Positions 2,709 to 64,000 of a stretch of DNA of 64,000 nt are shown in pieces (the first letter of the stretch is position 1; every line of letters begins with the position of its first letter). This DNA is from Pelomyxa schiedti (taxonomy: Eukaryota > Protista > Evosea), in the NCBI GenBank assembly GCA_020536535.1, contig JAHLWZ010000851.1, positions 11,134 through 75,133 on the forward strand, written 5' to 3'. The translations under genes and the position numbers were made by a program. The notes under the pieces are model-generated. The model had not been told where the DNA came from and ran no database searches. It saw nothing but the letters and a program-made list of their open reading frames with translations.

Positions 2709-2922
2709 TTTCTTTTTTGTTTGGGGAAAAAAAACTCAAGTTGAGACGCTGCTGCGCCGAAAAAAAAAAAAAGTGGTAATTCAGAGGGTATCTGCCACTT
2801 GCGTCACCCCAATCATCAATGTAGCGCCAAGGGCGGAGGGCTCTGACCAGTCCAGGTGTGTCGATCTCCCCTAGGAGTCCGGAAAGGTCCAAGTTGGTGG
2901 CAGCAAACAGATCTGGACGAAA

Positions 2923-5900
2923 ATGGAACCAGTCAACAAGAGGGCTCGCACCCCGCGGTGGTCCTCGTCGTCGTCGGCGAACCCGCCGGCTCCTATTGCA
3001 GTCCCGAATCTTGCGGCCCTTCAGACCGCCGCCGCCCATCGCGCTCCGTCTCAGGACCAGAATCAGCAACACACGCAGGAGGTCACGAACGCAGCCGGCT
3101 GCGCGCAGGAGGGAAGGAGAGATGGTGGGCCCGCCGCCGAGGAAATTGATTCCCCGGCGCCTGAGTTGTCAACGGCGAGTTCGCGCACGACGGAAAGTAG
3201 TAGCAGTAGTAGTAGTACAAGAATAAGTGGGAGTGGGAAGATCTCTGCTGGCCCGGCGAGTGCCGTGACCACCGGGAGCGACATTGACGTGGATCTTTAT
3301 AGTAGACAGCTGTATGCCATTGGCGTGGAGGCACAGAAGAAGATGATGTCATCTCGGGTTGTGCTTGTGGGCTTCACTGCACTTGCTGCCGAAATAGGTT
3401 TTCCGCTCACCCTTTTATTGCCGGCAACAATCTAAACGGACCACCAGCAAAGAATTTGGTTCTTATGGGGGTGCAGGGAGTTACTCTGTACGATTCCGGT
3501 TGTGTGGAATTGGGGGACTTGTGCTCTAATGTATGCGAGCGGCATACGAAAACAGCATTTCATTAAAATCATTACCAGTTTCTGCTCACTGAGTCCGATA
3601 TTGGTCGAAAGCGGGGTCAGGTTTGTGCCCAGCGACTGGCTGATCTTAACAACTATGTCTCTGTTTCCTTCGTTGATAGTTCTTCAGAGACTCTAGAGTC
3701 GCTTCTTTCCAATCATCAGGTTTCCTTTCTCGTTCTTGTCTGTGTTGAGGGAAAATTTCACGGTCGTTATTTGACAGATAGTTGTGGCCACTGGATGTTT
3801 CTTGGCTGTAGCTCTGAAAATTAACAAGGTTTGTCGAGCTCATGGGATCAAATTTGTTTGGGCAGACACTCGTGCTTGCTTTTGTTTTGCATTCAACGAT
3901 TTTGGCCCGGGATTTGCTGTATCAGATAGAACTGGTGAACAACCACATTGTTACAACGTGGCACGGATTACTCAGGACAGTTGTGCAACCGTTTCGGTCA
4001 TTGAGGACCAGGTTGTGGAATTTGAAGAAGGGAGTGGAGCAGTATTTTCTGGAGTAGAAGGAATGGAAGAAATCAATTTTGATCCCATCAGAAATTCAAA
4101 GTCGTATGTCTGTAAAGTCACAGGTCTTTCTATGTTCCAAAGGAAGCCATCCAACATTTTATAGGCCTGCACGAGATACAAATTGGGGACACTAGTTCTT
4201 ACCACCCTTACAGCTCTGGTGGTTATATCTCCGAAGTTAAAAAACCTTCCGTGATGGATTTTGTGTGTCACTCTTCTGCACTTAGTGCCTAATAACTGAC
4301 TTCGTCGAAAAAGGATTCTCTTGAAGAATCCCTAAAATCACCACGTTTGATAGAGGTAGATTCTTCCAGGGCAACCAGAAATGCCCAACTTTTTTCTGCG
4401 TTCCGGGGCTTGTGGGATTGGGCTGACAGCCATGATGGAACACTTCCTGAATACTTTGACAAGGTCCGTTGCGCATGCAACGCTCTCTAACTTCACCATA
4501 TAGAGGCATGCCTCTGAAGTAGCAGAACATGCTAGAAAGTATCAACTTGCAGGAGTGGAAGTAATTCCTGAACTCAAGCTTTTGTTTAATATTAACACTT
4601 GACAGTTCAATGACGATCTCAGCTCCACACTTTCTCACATTTGCCGCGGTGAATTACCCCCACTTGTTACTTTTCTTGGTGGGGTTGTGTGCCAGGAAGT
4701 CATGAAAGCTTGCTCTGGAAAGTACTCACCGATCAATCAAGTAGCGTACCATATGTTATCAATCTTACTCTGATATAGTGGCTGCTTTACGATTGTGATG
4801 ATGTTCTTCCTGGAGGTGGAGATAAACCTTTTGAATTAAGTCCACACTGTCGGTATGAACGTCAGACAATGGTGCTAGGAAAAGAAGTTGTGCACGCAAT
4901 TTTAAATGCCAAGATGTTCCTCGTTGGTGCTGGTGCTATTGGCTGTGAAGTTTTAAAAACGTGGGCAATGATGGGTCTTGGTTGTGGCGATAATGGTATC
5001 TTTTTCTCACCTTACAAGTTATTACTTATCACCAATAGGAATTGTTCACTTAACTGACATGGATTTGATAACTAAATCCAATCTTAGCAGACAATTCTTA
5101 TTTCGGCCTTCAGATATAGATGTATAGTATGAACTAATTTTTTGTATGCTGACTCTCGTAAATCACAGAAGCTTAAATCTGAAGTTGCCGCCTCTGCAGC
5201 AGTGAAGATGAATGCGTCAATGAAGATCAAACCTTACTCCTCCCGAGTTGGTATTGAAACAGAAAGTATGTTATCAAGTTTTATTCTACTGGCAATTCTA
5301 AGGAAATCAAGGTACCTTTGATGAAGATTTCTACTCTAGCCTAATTGGTGTCTGCACGGCATTAGATAATGTTGCAGCACGTCTTTACATGGACTCTCAG
5401 TGTGTGTTATATGGGAAAGCACTCATCGATTCTGGAACTCTTGGAACGAAAGGAAACACCCAAGTTCGTTTTCTTTCCTTTTATTATCTTTTCGATTCAA
5501 AAGTGTCTAGGTTGTGGTGCCTCTCCTCACTGAATCTTATGCATCCTCTCATGATCCCCCTGAGAAAGGAATTCCGCTTTGCACATTGCATCACTTCCCA
5601 AATGTCATCGATCACACAATACAGTGGGCTCGTGATTACTTTGATGGCCTTTTTACTAAGGACCCTCTTGTTGTGCAATCATATCTCACACAGGCCTCTT
5701 ATTTAGATGTCAGATGTCCTAATACCTACATTTTTCACCTTACCTTTTCCCAGAATGTGGGGCACCAATCTCTCGCCTTGAAAAAAGAAACACTGGAAAC
5801 ACTGAAGACATTACTAGTTACACAAAGGACAAAGAACTTTGTACACTGTGTCAAATGGGCGCGGTTGCAGTTCAACCTGATGTTCACTGAAAATATCAAG

Positions 5901-42492: not shown

Positions 42493-42552
42493 CCCGAATA
42501 AGATAAACCTGGTGGTGAACAGGTTGCGGCAGTTGTTTTTTTGTTTTGTCTC

Positions 42553-43656
42553 TTAGAAAGAAGAAAATGGGTCTTCTGTGGTGGCTGTAGTGGTAGCAGC
42601 GGGTTTTCCAGTGGCGCCGGCATTTTTGCACTCTTGGCACACTCGTTTCCCTTGTAGCATCCATCTTTTTGTTGGGAATAAAACGGTTAGTAGATACTGT
42701 GGGTAACTGTGTCGGAGGAATTGCATACTTGCATACAGCCTCGTTCCCGCACCTGGGGCATTTGGCAATACCCTCAGCAGCACGGGTAGCCTCCGCTTTG
42801 CGGGCAGCATGGCATGCCGGGCAATATTGCTTCATGTCCACCTCAAAGAACTTGGCCGGGTCTAGAATGGACATGCATTTTGCACAGGTGAAGCAGGTTA
42901 GGTGAACACGTTCATCGTGAAGAGTGAGGAACTCATTTTCAATGTGTTCACCACATCGGGCACAGGGTCTCTACGGTTGATATTAGATAGGACCGGTTTA
43001 TGGGTAGTGTTACTTACGCGATAGCAACCAGAGCACAGAAGCCTGCGTTCACGGTTCAAATACATGTCATCAGTAGTGACAAGGGATACTCCACATTTGG
43101 AACAGTTGTAGCACTGCCAATGCCATGCCAGACCTAGTAAGGAGTCACGAAATGAATACGAATGCCAAGCAAAAGGCTTGATGTACCAGCCATTTGGGCA
43201 ACATTGTCACTCTCCCCGATGGGTTGGGCACAGGAGTGGCACTTTTGGTTTGGATCTCTTTTAAGAGCATCATTGCCACAGGGTGGGCACAGTACTGTCT
43301 GGAAAATGAGTTTAGAAAACAGGCCAACCAACAGTCAATTAAAATTTCCAAGGGCACTGTACGAAAGTACGGTGCCAAAAAAAAAAAAAAAAATAATAAA
43401 TAAATAAAAAAGAAAAATACACACATTATTGAAGAGAACAAACTGTGCAGCTCCAATCAATACGTTACACTTGCTGCACAAGAAGCACTCGTGGTGCCAC
43501 TTCTGCGGAAATGTTTTAGTCAATTACGCCAGTTAAAAAAAGGGGGAAAGGAGGGTGGAATGATCTCGTGGATAACAAACAAACCTTGCCCACAGCCTCC
43601 ACAAACTTCGATGTAGGAGCGATCGGTAGGTTGCACTTTCCACACGTGGCCGCCAT
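42553..43656 (-). CDS. LIM-domain protein (three LIM domains)
   Basis: CGKCNLPI...KWHHECFLCSKC; CHSCAQPI...WHWQCYNCSKC; CARCGEHI...VHLTCFTCAKC...YCPAC. Confidence 0.88.
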
Positions 43657-43805
43657 TACGTTCGTTCGTTACGTTTAGTTTAATTCTTGGTTTTTTTTTT
43701 TTGTTTGTTTTGTGAAATTATTGTCCACTGAAGTGTCGGTTGCAAATCTGAAAGATTTTTTTTTCTTTTCATCCTATCAAGTCAACTTGACAGAAGGGTG
43801 CTGAT

Positions 43806-46800
43806 TTAATTTCGTTTGCTGAGGGTGATGTCGGAGCGTAGGGTGGTACAGGGAACAATTTCCTTGCTAATGGGAGTTCCTATGAGGGGTGATGTGTTGT
43901 GTGTTTCAAGCCATGTTTGGATAGAGCGGTGGTCATACAAAAACCTAGGGAAGTTGTATCAGGATTTGGGTGGAAAGCGGGAGATTGATTACCAGTCACT
44001 GGCAAAAACGGGGTTCTCCATTTCTCTCCGGGACAATGGACAGATGTATTCAGGATAGTCCGGGCGTATGAGTGGAAGACCTTACGTTTGGTTGACGTGG
44101 TGAAAAAACTGTGTTTGGGGGCAAACCTGACAGTGTTTCTAAAACGGCCTTGGCCAAATCCTTGACTTTGAATAGCAAAGAGTTCGCGGCGGGCAACGGT
44201 ACTCCAAGAGTGAGGAGGTCTTTCTCTGTAAGGTGCAGTAGGGCCCAGCCAGGAAGATCAACTTGTTCGCAGATGGAATAAGGTAATTTCTGAGATTCCA
44301 GCCATTTATGAACCACAGTAGGTGACCATGTGCAAACGAGACGGGGATTAAGGTCATTTGACAATGTTTCAGTCATTGCAACAGCAAGAGGAGGAGAAAC
44401 TCGGATATAGCCTGTGTGGCGCAACAGCCAACTTGTGTGCATTAGAAGCTTGCGGTCCAGCAACTTGGTAACGCCAAGACCATCAAGTATTTGGTCGGTA
44501 ATTTTATTAAATTGAAGGCCATCGATTCCCTGTGCTTCAAAAGACTGCACATAAGCACTGAGGCCAATGTCACGTAAAATCATGGATATTTGTTGAGTGC
44601 TAAGTGCTGGTAGCTCCCCAACTTCTTCAAAGTTGCGTACTATCTTGGTTTTGTGTACTTGTGTAGCACGCATCAGATCTGCATTGGTCTTTAATGCTAT
44701 ATCTGCCTCTATCCTCATGGCCTGGCCAGCTTCGGTAATTTGAGTGCATAGATTCTCTGCAACAGACAAAGATTTCTGACAATCAGAAAGTTTCTCCTGG
44801 TCTGAAATTAATGCTTCCTGCAGCATACTTAATATTTCCTCTTTCTCGGCTAGCTGTTTCCGAAGATCTATTATCTGACCTCTTACTCGGTTAATACTTT
44901 CTCGTCTTTCTTCAATGTCACCAATCTGCTCATCAACCTCAGTAGCTCTCTTTTCTAGAGTAGACTGTGCGCGGTTTGAGGCTGCAGTGAGATGGTCGAG
45001 AGTTAGTAGGGCTGCCGTAGCTTTGGCTGTAGGACCAGTGCTGGTTGCATTAAGGAAAGAGTTCACAACTGGAGGCATTGTGAGCGTTGGTTGTAATATT
45101 GTTGTATCTGTGTTCAGTGTTTCAGTGAAGAAGTTCAGTGTAGTGGAGACGGCCTCAACAATTTCTTCCATTTTGGGTAGTACAGGGAGATTGGTTGCTT
45201 GTACTGCCACCCATGGAATGTGTTGTGGTGGAGGGGAGGGAGCACTCCGGAAGAGGCTATGTATTTCTGTGTTGGTTGAGTTGCTTAAACAATCAAGTGG
45301 TGTTTTTCCGCCGATATTCTGGTTGAAATGTAAGAGCATTGAAAGCATCCTTTGAATGATACTTTGATTCTGTAGTCACTGACACGCAGTAAAATCTGGA
45401 CCATTTTCGGTAGTTCCAACTTGCATGCAATATGTAGAGGAGTCTGATAATGGTAAAAACTATGTGTCACTTATTTGATACTTACGTCTCCCTACATGGA
45501 ATTAGAGGATAAAAAAAAGAATTATTCACTTACAAGCTGTGCATGTCCAGGGAAAAAAAGAGGTACAACAATTAATAAAGAAAAAATCAAATAGGTCACT
45601 TACTCCCTAAAGAGTGGTGTGAAATTGCTTGGCAACTAATGATGAACTTACGTTCTTCAAGCCAGAAAGGGAAAGGAAGAGTCCAAAAATTAAATTTGTT
45701 TTTTTAAAAAAAACAGTAAGTCCTCATTGAAGTGAGAATTACATACAATCTGGTGGAAAGTTAGAAGTTTTTATTATGTGTGGGAGTGTACCCCCTAAAA
45801 ATCAATAAAGAAGGTATTATCAGATCGTACAGAAACGAGAAAAATGTCAATAAATAAAAATAATGAAGATGCTGACAGACCCTCTGAAAGATTGTGAATG
45901 AAACTTAAAGAAAACGGGACATACAATCTGAACACAATCATTGATCAAGTTGACCAATGTCAAATGAGAACAAAAAAATAGATACAAGAAGAATTACCCG
46001 CTAGGAGAGGAAAAAAGGCATATGTTAGCATTAAAGAAATAAGAAGATGGCCTTACCATCTAAGTTGCCCAATAGAACCGAAGCAAGGGGGAAAAAAAAA
46101 AAAAACCTATCAGTAAGAAAACACCTTAGATCATACATACAATCTTTTAAGGAAGCCACCAGAATGAAGAAACGAATTAGTAGAAATAATAGAAATTGAT
46201 ATCATACTTCCTGAGGAAAAGTTAATTTAAAAAAAAAAGGAATATTTAACTTACTCCCTAATTGGTGTAGTAGAACCAATTCCTTTAATCAGAAAACATA
46301 CTATAAATCATGACATTACATACATACTTGAAAAGTGAGAAAAGAAGAAAAGGAGTTGAAAGCACACAGTCTGTTTGTTACAAATGGCAGCAAGTAGGCA
46401 AGAAGTGAGAAATTTAGGTCAAAAATCGAAGAAGGTACTTACTCCCTTAAAAAAAACCTGTTAAAAGGAGATAGATAGTGATGGCACATACAGGCTATGT
46501 GTTGGGCAGAGCAAAGAGAATAAGTTGTTTTGATAAGTTACAACAGAAAAAATTTAGTTGAGCATACTTTCTGCAGGAAAGAGAGTCAGAATACTGAAAA
46601 GACTAAAGAAGAGAATGAAATTGGCATACTATCTGAAGCAAACAGTTAAAAAACTAAAGTAAATGGGTATGGAAAGTACCTGCAGATTTGGATTTGCCCT
46701 AAACTTGAGGAGTAGTTCCACCATTTCTGGGAGATTTCGTGCTACAGCCACATGCAAATGGGTCTACTAAAATTAAAAAACCAAAAGAGTGGTTGTTGCA

Positions 46801-47043
46801 CAGTACCGATCCGCCCTGTAATCGCCAAAGGGAGGAGAAAGAAAAAGGTGTTATTGTGGCAAAAATAAAATCAACCAAAAAAAAAAAAAAAGAAAAGCTA
46901 AAGCAGAAACGCACTCTCATGTAGTCATCAGGGTCGACGTTACGCAGCAACCACCCGGTGACCTCCGAAAGATCGTTGTTCGCCACCGCATTGCACAACA
47001 AAAATCTGTTCTTTTGAAACACCGACTCTGAGATCCCGCTCAT
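43806..47043 (-). CDS. Ankyrin-repeat / coiled-coil / 2xSAM / U-box protein (putative E3 ubiquitin ligase) containing a microexon array
   Basis: Exons in order: 47043-46915 (43 aa); 46815-46807 (GGS); 46763-46680 (THLHVAVARNLPEMVELLLKFRANPNLQ); the microexon array; 45443-45363 (TPLHIACKLELPKMVQILLRVSDYRIK); 45318-~44127 (NIGGKTPL, coiled coil, SAM-like LRDIGLSAYVQSFEAQGIDG and WSPTVVHKWL...LLHLTEKDLLTLGV); then U-box PEYICPLSRREMENPVFASDWFLYDHRSIQTWLETHNTSPLIG. Confidence 0.87.
45486..46632 (-). other. Tandem array of 18 predicted 3-nt (single-codon) microexons plus one 6-nt microexon
   Basis: AG|NNN|GT units in transcript order: ATA 46630-32, AAA 46568-70, CCT 46492-94, GGA 46443-45, ACT 46368-70, TAT 46324-26, GGA 46255-57, GAA 46208-10, ATT 46141-43, ATG 46057-59, CGG 45998-46000, ATT 45925-27, AGG 45881-83, GGG 45792-94, ATT 45747-49, AAC 45652-54, GGA 45604-06, CTT 45534-36, then GGAGAC 45486-91. 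Introns are 41-92 nt and all phase 0. Confidence 0.85.
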
Positions 47044-47213
47044 TTTCCCCCTTCTTGTATTTTCGTTTCACTTCTCGCTCCCTACTACTCTCGTGCACAC
47101 GCAGCGGTATCAGGGCCTCACCACCTCGTTGATGGTTTTTTTTGTTGTTCTTTTTTCCTCCGGGAAACACAACAAAACAATGTTTTGCTAGGAGATTAGA
47201 TTAGATTAGGGCT

Positions 47214-49115
47214 TTAGTCCTTGGAGGCTGAGGCGTGTTCAAATGTAGTCGAGCTGTTGGATTCTGCAATAATTCTGGAGAGAGGTGATGTGGGTTTTGC
47301 CATCGTCCCCCCTGTTCCTGAGGTTGTTATGTCACTGATGAGGGCTGGGTGTTGTTGGTGTAGTGGTAGTTGGTGGTGTTCTTGCTTAGTAGAGCCAGCA
47401 GCGGCGGTGGGGCTAGACGGCAGGGGCAACTCCAGGGGCTCGCACCTGAGCAGGCTGCCGGCCGCGGCCCCCGTGGGCGCGTTGGGCGGCAGCGTCGGGC
47501 TCGCGGGCAGGTTGATGAGCGGCGGCAGGGTCACCCCGCTGTTGAAGATGAGGGACTGCGTGGTGGTGCGGGGCACCAGCGCAATCACCCCTGGGCTGTG
47601 GGCCCGCTGCGGCGGCGGGGGCGGCGGCGCCGCCGGGGTCGAAGCGGGGGGGGCCTGCTTGGTGCCGCAGCCGCCGCCCCCGCCGCCGCTGCTTTCCTCT
47701 TTGAGGGGACTGGAGTCGGGCAAGGACTTGGCGGTGGGCACGTGGATGCCGCCGGACGAAGGAGGGGGAGGCTCCATGGTCAGGCTTCCTCCCCTAATGC
47801 TCATGTTCATGGTCATGGTCATGGGGGGGAGGGCGGCGCTGTCCGGGAGCGGCAGGATTGGGGGGAATGGAGGGGAGGCTGTTGAGTTCTGCAACGGCAT
47901 GAGTATCTGGGGCAAAACCGGGGAGTTGGATTGTGGGTGTATGAGCTTGGATATGGAGTTCGAAGAGACCTGCGGCGGGTTCGGCAACGGCATCGTCGGC
48001 GCCGGCGCCGGCGCTTCACTTGCAGGAGGAGCTGTGACGGCAGTAGTTTCGGGCGGGGATGCTTGCTGGCGTTTCTTGCCCCTGGGCTTCGCATCCGCCT
48101 TTTTTCTCTTCGCAGTATTTGGTTGCTGAGGGGCTGCTGCGGAACTAGCTGTCGTGTGTGATGCGGCTTGGTCGTCAACGGCCTGTGTGACATCACCCTG
48201 TGCTGCATGCTCTTCTTTGGATTCACTGCTGGTGGGCTTTCTTTTACGTGATGTAGTACTTGCAGATTTGTGAGCCCTTTCTTTCTTTTCTGGTTTTTCA
48301 GAGGGGGGAGGCTCCGCAGGTGGGTCTGGAATTTTGTCTGCAATCTCGGAAAGGAAATCAAATAAAACGTTCGTTTTCAAGCACTCTTTCCTAAAGGCAT
48401 CCACAAACAAGCATTAATGATGTGTACAACATCAAATTAGCACATACAAGTGGGATGGTGCAATTGTATAGCTCTGATGACGTTGGGCTACAGCACACGC
48501 CTGCAGTACCAAATCACGTAAAAACAGTTCTACACATTTGGCTGTTGGATTTCTAGTTAGTTTGATGATAATATAAGTTGATATTTTAATCAGAAAAAGA
48601 TAATCTGAAAAATGAAAAAGCACTTACACACGAGAATCGGAGTTGCTGTGGCAAGTTTCCCAACATCTTCATCAGATTGCATAATTCTCTTAATTCTCGT
48701 CTGCCCAAGAAAGATCAGAAAGAGAACGAAAATGAACATAAAAGTTCAATCCACTCGAGATATCTCGCTATTATTATCGCATATCACCACGTAAAACAAC
48801 ATAAACAGAGCCAAAAATACACACCGACGGAAACGCCGTCACTCGCGACTTGCGGTGGTGGACCTCGTGCTCCTGGCTCGGCGTTTGTCCCATAATTGCC
48901 GGTGCCCCAGCCCCAGTAGGAGGCGGTGGCGGCTGCGTCGTTGTAGTAGTGGTGCTAGTCGTCGTGGTGGTGCTGCTCGCGACGGCAGCCGCCGTCGCCG
49001 TAGCCTCGCCCGCCGCGTCGGCTTTCGCCCCTCGCGTCCTGCGTCCCCTCGTAGCCGTAGCACCCGAGGCCGCAGCGTCGCTTTTTGCTCCACGTCCACC
49101 TCGTCCTCTTCTCAT
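47214..49115 (-). CDS. DRAP1: NC2 alpha / Dr1-associated corepressor (histone fold) with long Pro-rich tail
   Basis: FP..RIKRIMQSDEDVGKLATATPILV.KCVELFLRDLV...PSHLKECL...FDFLSEI. Confidence 0.85.
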
Positions 49116-49270: not shown

Positions 49271-52200
49271 TCAGTTGAGCTTTTGTTTTCTGGTCCTGTT
49301 GTTACCCTTTTTTGTGTTGTCTTTGGGGGGTTGTGGTTGGAGACCTGTGGTGGCGGGCGCGGCAACGAATTCAATCTCGTGATTGGCTGTGGTAGTATCC
49401 AGTGCGGCCAGTATGCCATTGACAGAAGTTGTTATCTCAAAGAGAACGCCGAGGGGCTCGAACCGCCATCCCACTTCGCCGTGCTCAACCCGCAGTGTGA
49501 TGTTGGGGTCTCCCTGCATTTGAATTGCTGTTAGTCAAGCAACGAAAGTACCACAAACACACGGCGGCTGCAATTCTTCGGAGGTTACTTAGCAATGTGG
49601 CATGGCATATACGCATGCTTTGTACGTCACCTTTTAGCGTATGTGTGGGAGGAGGGAGTTTGTTGGCATGATGTGAGTGCCAAAGAGATACAAACCAAAG
49701 TGAATTTCGGTACGGAAGTGAGAATCGGTATTCTTAAAGTCATGCGGGTTCATATAAGTGGGGCAAAGTTGCATTGGCAGCACAGCAACCCGAGCAAATC
49801 GCACAATGTTTGCACCAATGGTTGCTTAAATACAGTTGAGTCTCATACAACAAAAGACCCCACTTAGGGGAAATGGGTTACCTGACAAAACATCCCAGAG
49901 CTCATTACCAACCAAAGTCAGTTGGGCATGTTTTACCGTTAAATCTGTTGTAATTGACCTTGGAAAAAAGGACCAAGAAAGCATTACCTGCTTGTTTCCT
50001 GCCCTCTACATGGAAACTGAGACCATGGCCAGCAATGCGATGAGATAGTTGTGCAGTAACTTTTGTTACATGACAAACTGGTGTTGGATCGAGGACGGGA
50101 GCTGCCTTCCAGCTGGTCATTGAAGGTTAGAGGCTATTAAAGATGGAACTTATACCTTGACCGCACTATTTGGAGAGCCTGTATATACAAGAAACAGGAT
50201 ACAGGGATAACAATGAAGAATAGCCAGCGAATTCCAACTTTGTAAACAACAAAAAGAGGCCACGCACCCCAGATGGCAAGAATTGGGAACATAAGCAACT
50301 CCCCTTTTCAGTGAATTGGTTCCGCAATACAATTATCTTTGTGATACCCAAGAACAGAACTCTTCTAAAGCTGAAACACTTCATAGTAAGTTTCGCCAGA
50401 ATCATCCTATACATTCCCCACATCTTTCCGGAAAAGATTCTGCTCACCAGCCATACATAGCAACCAATTGGCTGGAATAGAGGGGCATGCTTTTCACTTA
50501 CTGGGTTGAAATTAGTTGGTATAAATTTGGTGAACTCTTCCTCACTTGTAAAAAACGACCAAAGGGCGGATATAACAATAGGCATCCAAGCGCATTGTAT
50601 GATTACAGTTTCCGGTGTAATCTGGTACATAAAACTTTGGATAGAAGAGACCGTTGGTATTTCACTGGGCAGTACAGTGCCAACACTATGAACGGTGTTA
50701 AATAGAAGAAGAATGAAAGGAAAAACCATATCGACAGTGTCTCACAATCGTGGTGGATTCTCCTGAAAGGTATGAAATTGAGAAGTTTCCATGTTGCCGG
50801 TGAATGTTACCCAATTAGATCCCAAATAGTTGTTCTAAATGGAGAGGACAGAAGAGTAGGAGCAAGCATCCATGTACAGCACAGCAGTAGGAAAATAGGT
50901 GTTGAAAAAATTTGTACAACCATACACACAGTCTCTATAATTCCGTAGAACATGGGAGGAGTAACTTGTTTTGGTGAAAAACAATGAAATAGAAAACTGG
51001 GATGTACAAAGCTTGATTTTTTCCCACAGAGGAGCACCGAAGGAAAGGAAAAACATTGGGATAAATACTAGAAGAGGTAAAGTCATAGATTATTTGAAGG
51101 GAGTGCTCACATAATGAAGCCACAATGAGTATAAAGATAAAACCACAGATAAGAATAAATGTCGCCACTGTAAGAGGTATCAAAGAATCCACAACTTCCC
51201 ATGTGGAATTGAGTAAACTTTGATCTTGTTTGTTTAGAAAAAGAGTAAGGCAATATGGTGAAAACCAGTTATGGCTCTTAGACCTATTGGGATAGAGTTT
51301 AAAAAGTAACCTAACAGTGTGTTAATTACCATGTGAGCAGAAATTATTGAAACTCTTTTCAGGTCCAGGTATTACTTCATACAAAATCTTGTGGAAGGGC
51401 ACACACATCCAACCCAGCAACTGCGTTGACAAAGGGTGAGAAGAGATTATTTTACTTGACAACTTACTTTAAGTGGCAGTAAAAGGAAATGAACAATGTG
51501 ATAAATAGTTGCTTCTACAGTCCTAGAAATCTCGAAACGAAACAGGGACATTGAGAATGGGAAAGAATCTAAACCGAATTCGGTTGAAGAAAGTGTGTAG
51601 GCCTACAGTCCCACAAAAACACAAAAGGTGAACAAGAAGAGCCGAGTTTGGGGTTTGACACTACCTTGCGATACATCAGGGAGAGTGATGTTGACTTTCT
51701 GTCTATTGCAGAAAAATGGATGTGGCAAATAGAAACCATGTGAACAAGCATTTTAAGCCCGTCGAAGATAGTGAGGAATGCAAATGGCAACAAAAGAAGT
51801 GAAAGTAGGTCCAGGAGTAAAAGAAGGATTGTCCTCGTGGATGCAAGATAATACGCTCTAGTCTACACACCAAACTTCAGTTCAGAGTTGAGGGACACAA
51901 AGATACCTTGCGGTATTCAGACCAGAAATCACCAATAATTGGGAATGATGAATAATAATGGTGCACAAGAAATACAAATGTATGGGCACGAATCAAAGTG
52001 CAAATATGGATGGTGGCTAGAATCATTAACAGTGAGTATAAAACGAAGAAAAGTGCCTGCTGTTGTTGCCACGATATCAAAAATCACAAGTCCACACATT
52101 CGCGCCATGCTCCACCTAATGGCCCACAGGTTTTTATCCTTTACAGAGTCAAAGGTTAAAACGGAATCGCCGCTGGTACCTTCTTTATTTCATATACAAG

Positions 52201-58084: not shown

Positions 58085-59654
58085 TTAGTCGTAGTCCCAA
58101 TCATAGAAGATAAGGAAAGGTACTCCCTCATAGACTGAAGCCAATACTTCCAGAACGGATACAACCAGAGCAAAAACAGTGATGAAAGTGCGGTTTGGGG
58201 GATACCTCCTCCTCACAGCCTCAGAAAGTAGCCCCATTGCCACAATGCTGAGTGGCATTTCCAATCCCCAGATAAGTATGGCTACCAGTAGGCGGGAGCC
58301 TGAGCTGCATGCTCCCCAGATAGTAAATGCGATAAGCATTACACCAGTAGCGATGTCAAATACCATGCCTACTACAAATATGGCAAGGGAGTTTCCTCCT
58401 TGGTTGGGGTTTTGTATGTATTTCTCTATCTGTTTGTAGAAGGTTGGGTAATGGAAAAAAAAGAATGCGAAAAAGCTAAAAAGTACCTCTGGGAGTTGGA
58501 TCATCTCTGTGCCACTTAGCCTGTTCAATGCCCGTAGAACTCGTATAATGTAAATCACACTCAAAACGAGGTAGACTATTTGAAATAGGGCAATGAAGCC
58601 ATAGATGAATGCCCAAATTCGGACATAGTCATCTTCAGTATTGCCATTAATGTTGCGGTCACCCAAAAAGGCCATCATAATGAAACCAGCCATTAAAAAA
58701 AATGGACCCAGAATGGCAAAAGCCAAAATGCTGTCTGCAACAGAGGGAAAAACCGGTTACAAAACAGGAGGAAGGAGGGGTAGGGTACTTGCAAATTCAG
58801 TATTATTCTTTGTCAAGAAAGGATACTGAAAATGAAAGTAAAATAGATAACATCCAACGACAAGGGTGATAAACGATGCGGGAGCCACGACCCAGTACAG
58901 AAGGGATACCAACTGTTCTTTCGCCCCAGAAGACATATTTAGAAGTTTTCACACATTAAATAGCATTACTTACTCCAAAGAACACGTTTACAGCTAGTAA
59001 AACAGCCAGAAGTCGGTAATAAAAGGAGTGCTTTATAGAGCTCAAAGTTTGCACTTTTCTTGACGCAGTATACCCACTGTTTTTGTTGTTAAAGTTTTTG
59101 CGTAAAAACTTGGCCTGGCAATGGGTACAAAAAATGCAGCAACAGCGATAAATTACAGAATAAAGAATAACGAAAACAAACCTCTCAATAAACTGCTGAA
59201 CAGTGCAGTACTTTGGAGCAGCAAAAGCCACTCCGGGCTTCCGCGAAGCCAGCAAATAACACCCCAACGAGAACCCGGCCCTGGTCACGCCCACGCCCCC
59301 GTATCCGCCCCTCTCCACCATTCCCATAAGTGCGTGCGTGACCGCCTCCCCCTCGCCGTACCTCAGCCACGCCCCCTCGGCCGCCGCCGCGTCGGCCACC
59401 TCCTCGGGGCCCCCTCCGCCCCCGACTTTGCCGAGGGTGTCGAACACCACGTCGCACGTGCCGCGGAACTCGGCGGGCACGATCGACCCAGGGCCTGACG
59501 TCACGTTTGCAGTTGCAGCAGGTGACGTAGCCGCCGCGGGGTCAACAGACCCCACGACGTCAACTGCAGTTGCATTCACAGTGTAGGTGCCTGTTTCCTC
59601 TTTTGCGCTCTCCATCTCGACTACGTTCGACGGGTTGGTTGCGTCGTAAGCCAT
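58085..59654 (-). CDS. Hypothetical multi-pass membrane protein
   Basis: 232-aa N-terminal ORF followed by a 213-aa ORF with several hydrophobic helices. Confidence 0.55.
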
Positions 59655-59815: not shown

Positions 59816-62219
59816 TTAGCGCGAATTGAGAATGCCGTCGATTTTGAGTATCATGACCACGGTTTCAGTTGCTAGCTGTGTTGCACTTGAGAATACAAGG
59901 AGAGGCCCAACAACTTTCTTCTCCAGCATGTCACTGATTTTTCCTTGTGTGTGGGTGGCCTGGGTTTGGTTTTAGTTAGGGCAAGTTTGGTTTTCTTTGT
60001 TTTGGTGAAAGTACAGGAAGAGTGGAGTTTACATACTTTTCTCATGTTAATGCCGGCGTTTTTGTTTCCTGAAATGTGTGCATTTCTGAGTTCGGTTACC
60101 ACTTGAACAGGATTCAACCCAGCGTTCTCTGCCAGTGTGTAAGGTATTACTTCAAATGCCTCACCAAAGGCACGGACACAATAGCTCTGTCAATTGTTAG
60201 TGCGGGGAAAGTGACATGCTCAGGAAAAACCTCAACGCCAGTCAGTGTCTTGGCGTATTCGCGGAGTTGCAAACTTACTTCCATCTCAGGTGCACCACCT
60301 CCAGGGCACAAAAACCTGTGGTGATGAGAAAACGTTTATGCGTGCATAAACATACTTCACCCTAACAAGAGACCTCACAACGCACAAAGCATCGTGTAGT
60401 GATCGTTCGGCCTCATCAACAATAAGGCGATTAGCACCACGAACCAGAATGCTGACCGTCTTAACTGTTGGAGCAACACCTGTTACTTTCACAATCTTGC
60501 TGTCCTCGCTAATTGCAACTTCCTCAACTAGCTCTGCTCGGCCAAGTTTTTCAGGTGAGAACCCTTCAATACTGGCTATTGGTTGACACCCAACGGTCTA
60601 TTGGATCATAAATTAGAACTTAAAACAAAGAGGAAATGAACGACCTTGCAGATAAACTCGATATCATCCCGCTCAATGTCGTGCACAACCAGAATATGGT
60701 ATTTGGCAAGGTAATGGAGGGCCAAATCGCTGAGGGCATCACGCAAAATGGATTTCTGCACCAGTAATACGTTGCAGCCTGTCTTGGCAATTCTTTTGCA
60801 GAGATTCAGAATGTATACTCTCTCCTGTGCAATTATGGCATCCATTTGGGTGTAGTCTGCAACGGACACTTTATTGTCCATCTACTCCAGTTATTGCCGA
60901 GAAAATAATTTCTTCTAGACATACGTTCGTTTTTGGGGCAGACAGGCAAAATTGCATGAGGCCAATTTTTGCATTTGCGACTCTAGTTGGCCCACCCGCA
61001 TTGTGTGCAATCTTTTGCGAAAAAACAAGGCCATCAACAAGTTCGGTGTCGTCAATTGTCCCTCCAACTTTCTTAGTTATCCTTTAGAAGAATTAAAACA
61101 GTTACACAGAACGGAATTGGGAAGGGAAACCTTATGTCATGCATGTTAACGTTGGTTGCAGTCTTATCAACTACTTTGAGAATTGCGTTTACTGCAATTG
61201 GAGCAAGTAAGGAAGAGTACTGCGATACAAGCTAAATATTTTGAACTCGTTAGGGAATCCGTTTATTGACGTTTATTCTGTCCTTTAAACATGAGGAAAA
61301 GAGTAAGGCACCTTTGAATTGAGTGATGTCACGGCACTCTTTAGCAAGGTATCCCTGTCTGCTAACTCAATTGGTATTGCCATCCCTCTTAACACCTCTT
61401 GGGCCTTGGCGCAGCCCTTTAGAAACCCCCTAGCAATAACACTGGGATGAATATTTTTCCCCATTAGAGTCGAGACATGGCCCAACATCGAGCCAGCCAG
61501 GACAACAACAGACGTGGTACCATCTCCAGCCTCAATGTCTTGTGCCTTACCGAGTTCCGCCATCTGAAAAGATCATGAGTTCTTCCACTATTGAGTAATT
61601 TCTGGAGTTGTAACCCACCATTCTTGCTGTGGGGTGCAGCAAGTGAAGTTGTTGCAAAATTGTAGCGCCATCATTCGTGATTACAGTGTCCCCATTCGGT
61701 GCAGAAATCTTCAAGTGTGAGGATATAACAGAAGTGCCTCCAAAAAGAACAAGTACTAGCAACACCCAAAAGGGGAAACTTACCATTTTGTCCATCCCCT
61801 TGGGCCCCAAACTGGTCCGAATTGTGTCAGCAACACCTTCCATTGCATTAATTTTGTTGTTTTTTTTGCTTTGGCTGTGATTTGGTTTTGTTTGGGAGTG
61901 GTGGCACCACACAACTTGGTCCCTTTTGGTGTTTGGCAGATTGATGATTGCGTTTTTGAATTGTGGGTGGGCGGGTGGTTGGGTTGGTTGGTTCGGTGCT
62001 TCGTTACGTACCCTTCGCAGCTACGATGTTGGCCTCCCTCACGTTCCTCTCAGTGTCCCTCTCCTCCTTACGATCGGGCGCCCCGCCGCCGGGCGTCACC
62101 ATCATCGGCACGAAACCGCCGCCTCGTGGTCCGGACTGGGGCGCCGCAGTTGCCGCGGCTGACGATGATGACGTGGTCGCAGTTGCTGCGGCTGACGATG
62201 ACCCTGTAGATGTTGCCAT
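59816..62219 (-). CDS. CCT4: Chaperonin CCT/TRiC subunit delta
   Basis: [96 protein letters not shown]. Confidence 0.95.
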
Positions 62220-63470: not shown

Positions 63471-63714
63471 AAAACGGCGTTCGTTTCCAGAGCCGCGCAA
63501 GCGAAAACCACGTTGAATCGCACTGACACCGAGAACCCGCCGGGGGCGTGTAGCTCTGTCTCGCTCCCCGCCTACGGGTACCGACGCGACCAGCTTCGCT
63601 GTGCTTGGCCCTTGACGTCAGCAGGATACTGGTTTTTGGTATTGCTCACCGATGCGACGTCGTCTGCGTGGAGCCGCAGAGGGGGTTGTGGTGGTGCTAC
63701 ATATCTGGATCAGT

Positions 63715-63875
63715 GGGCAGTGATTTTTTTCCCTATCAAAAAGTGTATCATCACCGCCCAAAATCACTGCCCGGGCGGTGATTTTGGGCGGTGATGATAC
63801 ACTTTTTGCAGTCAAATCGGATCACCGCCCCGGGCGGTGGTCAAGCACATAAGCCAGTCAGTAAAATCACCGCCC
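63715..63875. repeat. 72-bp near-perfect palindrome (63737-63808) within a cluster of ATCACCGCCC / GGGCGGTGAT motifs
   Basis: CAAAAAGTGTATCATCACCGCCCAAAATCACTGCCC|GGGCGGTGATTTTGGGCGGTGATGATACACTTTTTG, one mismatch and no loop; further motif copies at about 63715, 63821, 63832 and 63866. Confidence 0.85.
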
Positions 63876-64000
63876 TGGGTTTAACCAAAAGAAAAAACTT
63901 TTTTTTAGGTTGTTCTTAATCTAACTCAATATTTAACAGTGCTGAGGGGTTAAGCTTTGGGCTAAACAAGGAGTACAAAGCAAACATGTTGTTCCTTGTG

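Follow-up and report, generated by a model that had tools for sequence, protein, structure and literature searches.

Eighteen predicted single-codon exons in one ankyrin hairpin of a putative ubiquitin-ligase gene of the free-living amoeba Pelomyxa schiedti

The window analysed here, a stretch of 64,000 nucleotides from the free-living amoeba Pelomyxa schiedti, carries on its minus strand the gene Pelo_12621, which encodes an ankyrin-coiled coil-SAM-SAM-U-box protein (public model P0001). Neighbouring genes on the same strand are, judging by their motifs, taken to encode a LIM-domain protein (42500-43700), a histone-fold co-repressor (47214-48745) and a chaperonin subunit (59816-61848), and a presumed ubiquitin-activating enzyme gene, also assigned by motifs, occupies 2800-4500 of the plus strand. 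Elsewhere in the window, positions 63700-63945 reached approximately 124-fold depth with many variants in the DNA-like X4, compared to approximately 5-fold nearby, and are likely to represent a repeat, and a 65-nt piece at 59226-59291 is shared by RNA contigs in X1 and X2 that are otherwise unrelated, with loose ends on both sides.

The 3' part of Pelo_12621 is expressed and spliced, and the product of its downstream exons is identical to P0001. From the 3' end, these comprise the last exon with the rest of the U-box and the stop codon (43806..43944, minus strand as for all exons of the gene), which reproduces P0001 with a 48-nt intron; the exon holding the U-box start (43993..44080), preceded by an intron (44081-44126) that RNA contigs X1 and X2 bridge (joint 44078/44125); a long exon identical to P0001 that encodes the last ankyrin cap, a linker, the coiled coil and two SAM domains (44127..45318), with X1 covering 44125-45281; and a 27-codon ankyrin exon (45363..45443) that holds the P0001 start and matches the model. 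Pfam scores were 22.6 bits for the U-box (cut-off 21.4), 46.2 bits for SAM_1 in the long exon (above cut-off) and 19.2 bits for Ank in the 27-codon exon (E = 0.0015, below cut-off), and neither P0001 nor three exon or ORF pieces from further upstream gave a NACHT match at E up to 0.1. Within the SAM region, the letters of X1, X3 and X4 differ from the window at 44301 and 44365, likely reflecting a second allele.

Upstream of a long gap, a further ankyrin exon of 28 codons (46680..46763) matched Pfam Ank PF00023 at 26.1 bits (cut-off 21.1). It is preceded by a predicted 9-nt microexon (46807..46815) encoding G-G-S in the first ankyrin hairpin, and by a predicted first coding exon of 43 codons (46915..47043) encoding the ankyrin N-cap repeat. 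The 9-nt microexon has AG/GT flanks, is in phase 0 on both sides, lies between introns of 99 and 43 nt and would give the motif G-x-T-H-L-H, as in the Mastigella proteins described below. The first exon, predicted from its open reading frame and GT donor, ends in phase 0 and aligns with the Mastigella N-cap; Pfam returned no hits for the 122-aa ORF holding it, and RNA contigs gave no cover. With these two exons and every unit in the gap included, the head is complete at 107 residues and the whole protein comprises 593 residues. The initial annotation had proposed that gene finders miss the array of microexons in the gap, and indeed P0001 starts downstream of the array and loses the whole 107-residue head, an annotation blind spot.

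The gap itself (46679-45444, 1,236 nt, minus strand) contains 18 single-codon exons (45534..46632), called as AG-NNN-GT units from their chain and splice-site statistics, with first bases at 46632, 46570, 46494, 46445, 46370, 46326, 46257, 46210, 46143, 46059, 46000, 45927, 45883, 45794, 45749, 45654, 45606 and 45536. They are followed by a 6-nt microexon (G-D, 45486..45491) with AG/GTAAGT flanks and introns of 42 and 42 nt, located at an ankyrin consensus position where it supplies the G-x that precedes T-P-L-H. Together with the triplets, this exon splits the gap into 20 introns, each 41-92 nt long. All units were present where the initial annotation had placed them, and its description of the introns as normal-sized for the window also held, with the minimum matching that of RNA-verified introns. 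By contrast, its remark that none of the triplets is a stop codon is correct but uninformative as evidence (P = 0.46). The DNA-like contig X4 covers 45150-47100 unbroken and with no differences, although X4 may be the window's own source. At the fourth codon exon, an alternative acceptor 12 nt upstream would create an in-frame 15-nt exon (46443-46457); the intron preceding it would measure 34 nt, shorter than the 40-nt minimum of RNA-verified introns.

The AG-NNN-GT pattern occurs 22 times in the gap, compared to a chance level of 2.7 (SD 1.5, maximum 10 in 2,000 dinucleotide shuffles). These matches comprise the 18 listed units, three TAA inside GTAAGT donors and one TAT at 46300, the last rejected as an array member on account of its weak donor and an upstream intron of 23 nt. 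Spacers of 1, 2, 4, 5, 6, 8 and 9 nt were all at chance level (0-3 matches), and the 11 matches at a 7-nt spacer would be an echo of the GTAAGT/GTATGT donors. When units were chained at 40-110 nt spacing, the longest AG-NNN-GT chain was the 18 of the array; no other chain in the window exceeded nine, whichever spacer length or strand was considered, and the maximum fell to seven once the array was masked. In a scan of 67 unrelated metagenome loci, matched by U-box only, the longest chain was seven or fewer in all 67 and an array was detected in none; chains of seven and six in loci L007 and L017 were rejected as lacking splice-site features.

Splice-site features were assessed against a local standard of 15 RNA-bridged introns among those listed for the window, with 32 further joints outside this sample. 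These 15 introns span 40-148 nt, and all 20 array introns are at least 41 nt long against this shortest length of 40 nt (P = 1.4e-10 under uniform placement); overall, array and standard intron lengths did not differ (Mann-Whitney p = 0.27). A G at +5 was found in 15/15 array donors without G at -1 and in 2/5 of those with it (p = 0.009), as in the standard, where the corresponding fractions were 4/4 and 2/11 (p = 0.011). Scored with a matrix built from 14 verified GT introns, array donors reached 6.0; the 48 remaining GT dinucleotides of the gap scored 3.1 (p = 5e-7) and the verified training set 5.1. Purines made up 63% of the triplets and 31% of the introns (p = 2e-6). Small exons are spliced in P. 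schiedti, since an 18-nt exon in a neighbouring gene (51266-51283, minus strand) is bridged by RNA contig X3. A 40-nt GC-AG intron at 52017-52056 (minus strand) is likewise RNA-bridged. For the genome as a whole, the genome paper gives 7.43 introns per gene (PMC8887013), and neither 'exon' nor 'ankyrin' occurs at a word start in the main text of that article.

Taken with the ankyrin period discussed below, these statistics agree with the initial annotation's claim that the units are real microexons within an ankyrin beta-hairpin, which is backed also by a homologous transcript with a long insert in the same loop. We are highly confident that all 19 units represent real exons. The opposing explanation, in which the units are non-coding, having arisen by chance within a single long intron or serving as intermediate points for its piecewise removal, is highly improbable. 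It would accommodate the finding that RNA contigs X1-X3 do not cover the array region, and a 1.2-kb intron would be long for P. schiedti, such that removal in pieces could be useful. Yet chance is opposed by the 22 matches, the triplets are purine-rich and coding-like, and removal of the full gap deletes five residues of the ankyrin hairpin. Recursive splicing depends on ratchet points, at which an acceptor directly precedes sequence that recreates a donor after ligation; as 0/19 units start with GT or GC, ligation recreates no donor, and recursive splicing was rejected.

A recent tandem duplication was also rejected as the origin of the array, given that the best of 190 intron pairs reached only z = 3.6 and that the similar flanks shared by the three GGA exons and by the three ATT exons are short. 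Although the array introns have diverged, none of the splice sites has been lost; with so little sequence shared between introns, the array appears to be old.

The position of the array relates directly to the ankyrin fold, in which the face bearing the hairpin loop usually binds partners. The spacing between the two helix-1 motifs flanking the gap is 28 residues with all units skipped, 30 with the 6-nt exon only, 33 when three codons are added to the 6-nt exon and 48 with all units included, and among control ankyrins 11 of the 15 spacings under 60 residues equal 33. The hairpin D/N-x-x-G-x-T-P-L-H and its 33-residue period are therefore obtained with three codon exons plus the 6-nt exon, and some codon exons are needed for a canonical repeat, since spacing reaches only 28 or 30 without them. 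Judged from sequence, the last three codons (N, G, L) fit the ankyrin consensus best: N-G-L is the sole D/N-starting combination of 341 distinct three-residue subsets, and D or N occupies that hairpin position in 34 of 53 ankyrin motifs.

This fit underlies the explanation in which splicing normally retains the last three codons plus the 6-nt exon, yielding a canonical 33-residue repeat, and the 15 upstream codons form a rarely used reserve. We consider this improbable, as it needs an intron of approximately 1 kb spanning 15 good acceptor-donor pairs, far from the 40-148 nt of the listed RNA-bridged introns, and the splice signals of the upstream units are equally good. Moreover, a loop with all units included would retain the same last three residues.

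To place the gene among its relatives, a profile-free HMMER search with P0001 as the query returned 1,085 proteins under an E-value limit of 0.001. Most of 40 scanned relatives combine SAM and U-box domains behind variable heads, including ankyrin, WD40, LRR, SH3 and PBD, and the named relatives derive from Pelomyxa, Mastigamoeba, Mastigella and Muranothrix. With its SAM and U-box domains, the array gene fits an Archamoeba-type head-coiled coil-SAM-SAM-U-box family (our own label) and its product is a predicted ligase; the SAM-SAM-U-box family is expanded. A tree of 35 SAM-SAM-U-box tails (last 300 residues, picked by us from 150 hits and cluster members) gave no orthology call between the Pelomyxa gene and the Mastigella proteins. 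Among 7,999 candidates of 242-772 aa, P0001 alone was recovered in the search for a transcript-derived copy of the head, and a search for head fragments gave 22 hits from 394 candidates (14-235 aa), all generic ankyrins.

Several relatives showed features of their own. The genome-derived Mastigamoeba protein P0020 (m51a1_g7775), whose gene spans 4.2 kb for 601 residues, has an ankyrin spacing of 28 at residues 89-117 with hairpin residues missing; since 28 is the spacing expected had annotation skipped microexons, such exons may be hidden in this gene. The models of P0013 (Pelo_6819), P0023 and P0029 start inside an ankyrin repeat, like P0001, and upstream small exons may have been missed. P0040 and P0043 (Pelo_12572 and Pelo_12570) carry neighbouring locus numbers, lie on contigs of identical length and are likely tandem paralogues. 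In the near-identical P0036 and P0159, 6 of 17 substitutions fall within the ankyrin head (residues 29-56), as in the Mastigella pair, which hints at fast change of the head.

Two Trinity-assembled proteins of Mastigella eilhardi, P0010 and P0156, share the architecture and the T-H-L-H motif of the array gene but differ in the same loop, which reads LGNR in one and LGRLDDLLYGDLRLYGRYGLRLDL in the other (4 compared to 24 residues). The 24-residue insert uses five residue types, a diversity of five or fewer found in only 5 of 9,889 24-residue windows from 32 other ankyrin proteins and one that would be expected of repeated codon units. The two proteins also differ at 22 positions outside the loop, which all fall between residues 4 and 155, and LGNR cannot be drawn in order from the residues of the long loop; for these reasons they look like gene copies or alleles, and loop variation in Mastigella may therefore be genomic. 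The very assembly of a 24-residue insert suggests that a single long form predominates for that gene copy, and no further Mastigella form was found in nine hits from 1,814 candidates (336-1071 aa). The all-in Pelomyxa peptide bears a weak likeness to this insert (score 25, shuffle p = 0.03 under gap costs that we chose), which would fit selection on one full-length loop. Fold predictions kept the ankyrin helices in both Mastigella forms, with pLDDT of 84-92 for the short form and 87-94 for the helices of the long form, whose insert loop was of low confidence (48-55).

These observations bear on whether the Pelomyxa loop is variable. Array inclusion or skipping could not be read from RNA, with none of the contigs X1-X3 matching 45282-47100 at 90% likeness or the bins at 45335-47335 at 80%, although such contigs cannot prove absence; because of this missing cover, skipping is inferred. 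On balance, we consider it probable that splicing of real codon exons yields a mixture of mRNAs differing in the residues of one ankyrin hairpin loop, given that each unit adds a complete codon flanked by phase-0 introns. As factors could not occupy both ends of a 3-nt exon simultaneously, each 41-92 nt intron would be recognised across the intron and removed singly. Where a donor is paired with a later acceptor, the codons between would be dropped with no frameshift and no stop. The strong donors suggest that high-inclusion long loops would probably dominate, with a tail of shorter forms. By simple arithmetic, 90% inclusion per exon would leave all 18 in only approximately 15% of mRNAs, so even modest skipping per exon gives a mixed pool. 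The 2^18 patterns proposed in the initial annotation, with fewer peptides because codons repeat, correspond to 170,428 distinct peptides by our calculation.

Against this stands the explanation that all 19 microexons are almost always included, such that the gene makes a single protein of 593 residues whose loop is invariant and exceeds the canonical length by 15 residues. On this view, the array arose from an old duplication of codon-plus-intron units, and loops vary among gene copies or alleles instead of among splice forms. We judge this rather unlikely, although array donors score above the verified set, which favours inclusion and counts against skipping, and intron sizes are normal. In Mastigella, the long form was assembled with a single insert and the differences between the two forms resemble those between gene copies; the weak likeness of the all-in peptide to that insert points the same way. 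Duplication alone would account for both phase 0 and the 3-nt size, and the similar flanks at the GGA and ATT exons hint at such an event. By analogy, plant microexons, which are usually included, also count against skipping. Conversely, the introns have diverged to the extent described above yet every splice site persists, slight skipping at each of 18 exons would already mix the pool, and truffle arrays of codon exons are reported to be alternatively spliced, a possible precedent for skipping in the Pelomyxa array.

Should the mRNA mixture exist, it would likely vary the predicted target-binding surface of a predicted ubiquitin ligase. From domain knowledge, the head would bind a target, the SAM pair would oligomerise and the U-box would ubiquitinate the bound target. 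More tentatively, we propose as a possibility that Pelomyxa and its relatives possess ankyrin-SAM-U-box sensor ligases whose hairpin is built codon by codon through combinatorial splicing, giving up to approximately 170,000 loop peptides per gene that possibly differ between cells or nuclei. This would constitute a somatic diversification of receptors that evolved convergently with that of truffle NLRs and extends to genes of Mastigella and Mastigamoeba, whose arrays would be hidden from annotation. If the exons are spliced, the run of 18 one-codon exons between minimal introns, at 1.2 kb short enough for a single amplicon, offers a compact natural setting in which to probe how small an exon can be. 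Combinatorial skipping, should it occur, would mean that an amoeba varies the binding loop of a predicted ubiquitin ligase at single-residue resolution. Within the literature examined, this design is otherwise reported only for truffle NLRs, and its presence in an amoeba would suggest that microbial eukaryotes have invented splice-based receptor repertoires more than once.

The closest known system among the sources consulted overturns the initial annotation's statement that no such run of one-codon exons was known: the NACHT-ankyrin (nank) genes of the truffle Tuber melanosporum are reported to contain tens of alternatively spliced codon-sized (3-bp) exons (PMC4986451, PMC13449251, PMC9815663, PMC3689799). 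As described in these sources, nank genes resemble the Pelomyxa gene, with its 18 such exons at the DNA level, in having runs of 3-bp exons within an ankyrin-repeat gene of an expanded family, and in the proposal that alternative splicing diversifies a recognition domain. The Pelomyxa gene differs in its amoebozoan host, its N-terminal ankyrins, its SAM-SAM-U-box partners in place of a NACHT match and the placement of all codon exons in one hairpin loop; variation in splicing has been reported for the truffle, whereas for the Pelomyxa array it is predicted. Lacking NACHT, the Pelomyxa gene is not a member of the nank family, but would work like one if skipping holds.

Other systems share fewer features. 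The micro-exon genes (MEGs) of Schistosoma, as far as they are described in bioRxiv 10.1101/2023.06.21.545858, encode secreted proteins from runs of 10-20 very short exons, mostly 15 bp and mostly of 3n length, with introns of 0.1-5 kb and isoforms produced by skipping of central exons. The codon exons of the Pelomyxa array are 3 bp and its introns, at 41-92 nt, are shorter than those of MEGs. The Pelomyxa array instead forms one loop of a folded multi-domain protein with a predicted ankyrin cap at its N-terminus and a U-box at its C-terminus. In brown algae, ROCO-LRR and NB-ARC-TPR candidate receptors are similarly described as having an exon layout that allows splicing or shuffling to vary a repeat-type recognition domain, with the exon unit corresponding to a whole repeat rather than one residue (PMC13449251). 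Plant microexons of 1-15 nt are likewise very small, have strong donors and are missed by annotation, but those reported are single or paired, about half are 3n and inclusion is usual, with no long run of codon exons described for them in that source (PMC8831610). A literature search, which most subscription journals lay beyond, returned no report of microexons for Archamoebae. The structure is not categorically new in light of these systems; what is new is its amoebozoan host, its ubiquitin-ligase architecture and its position within an ankyrin hairpin.
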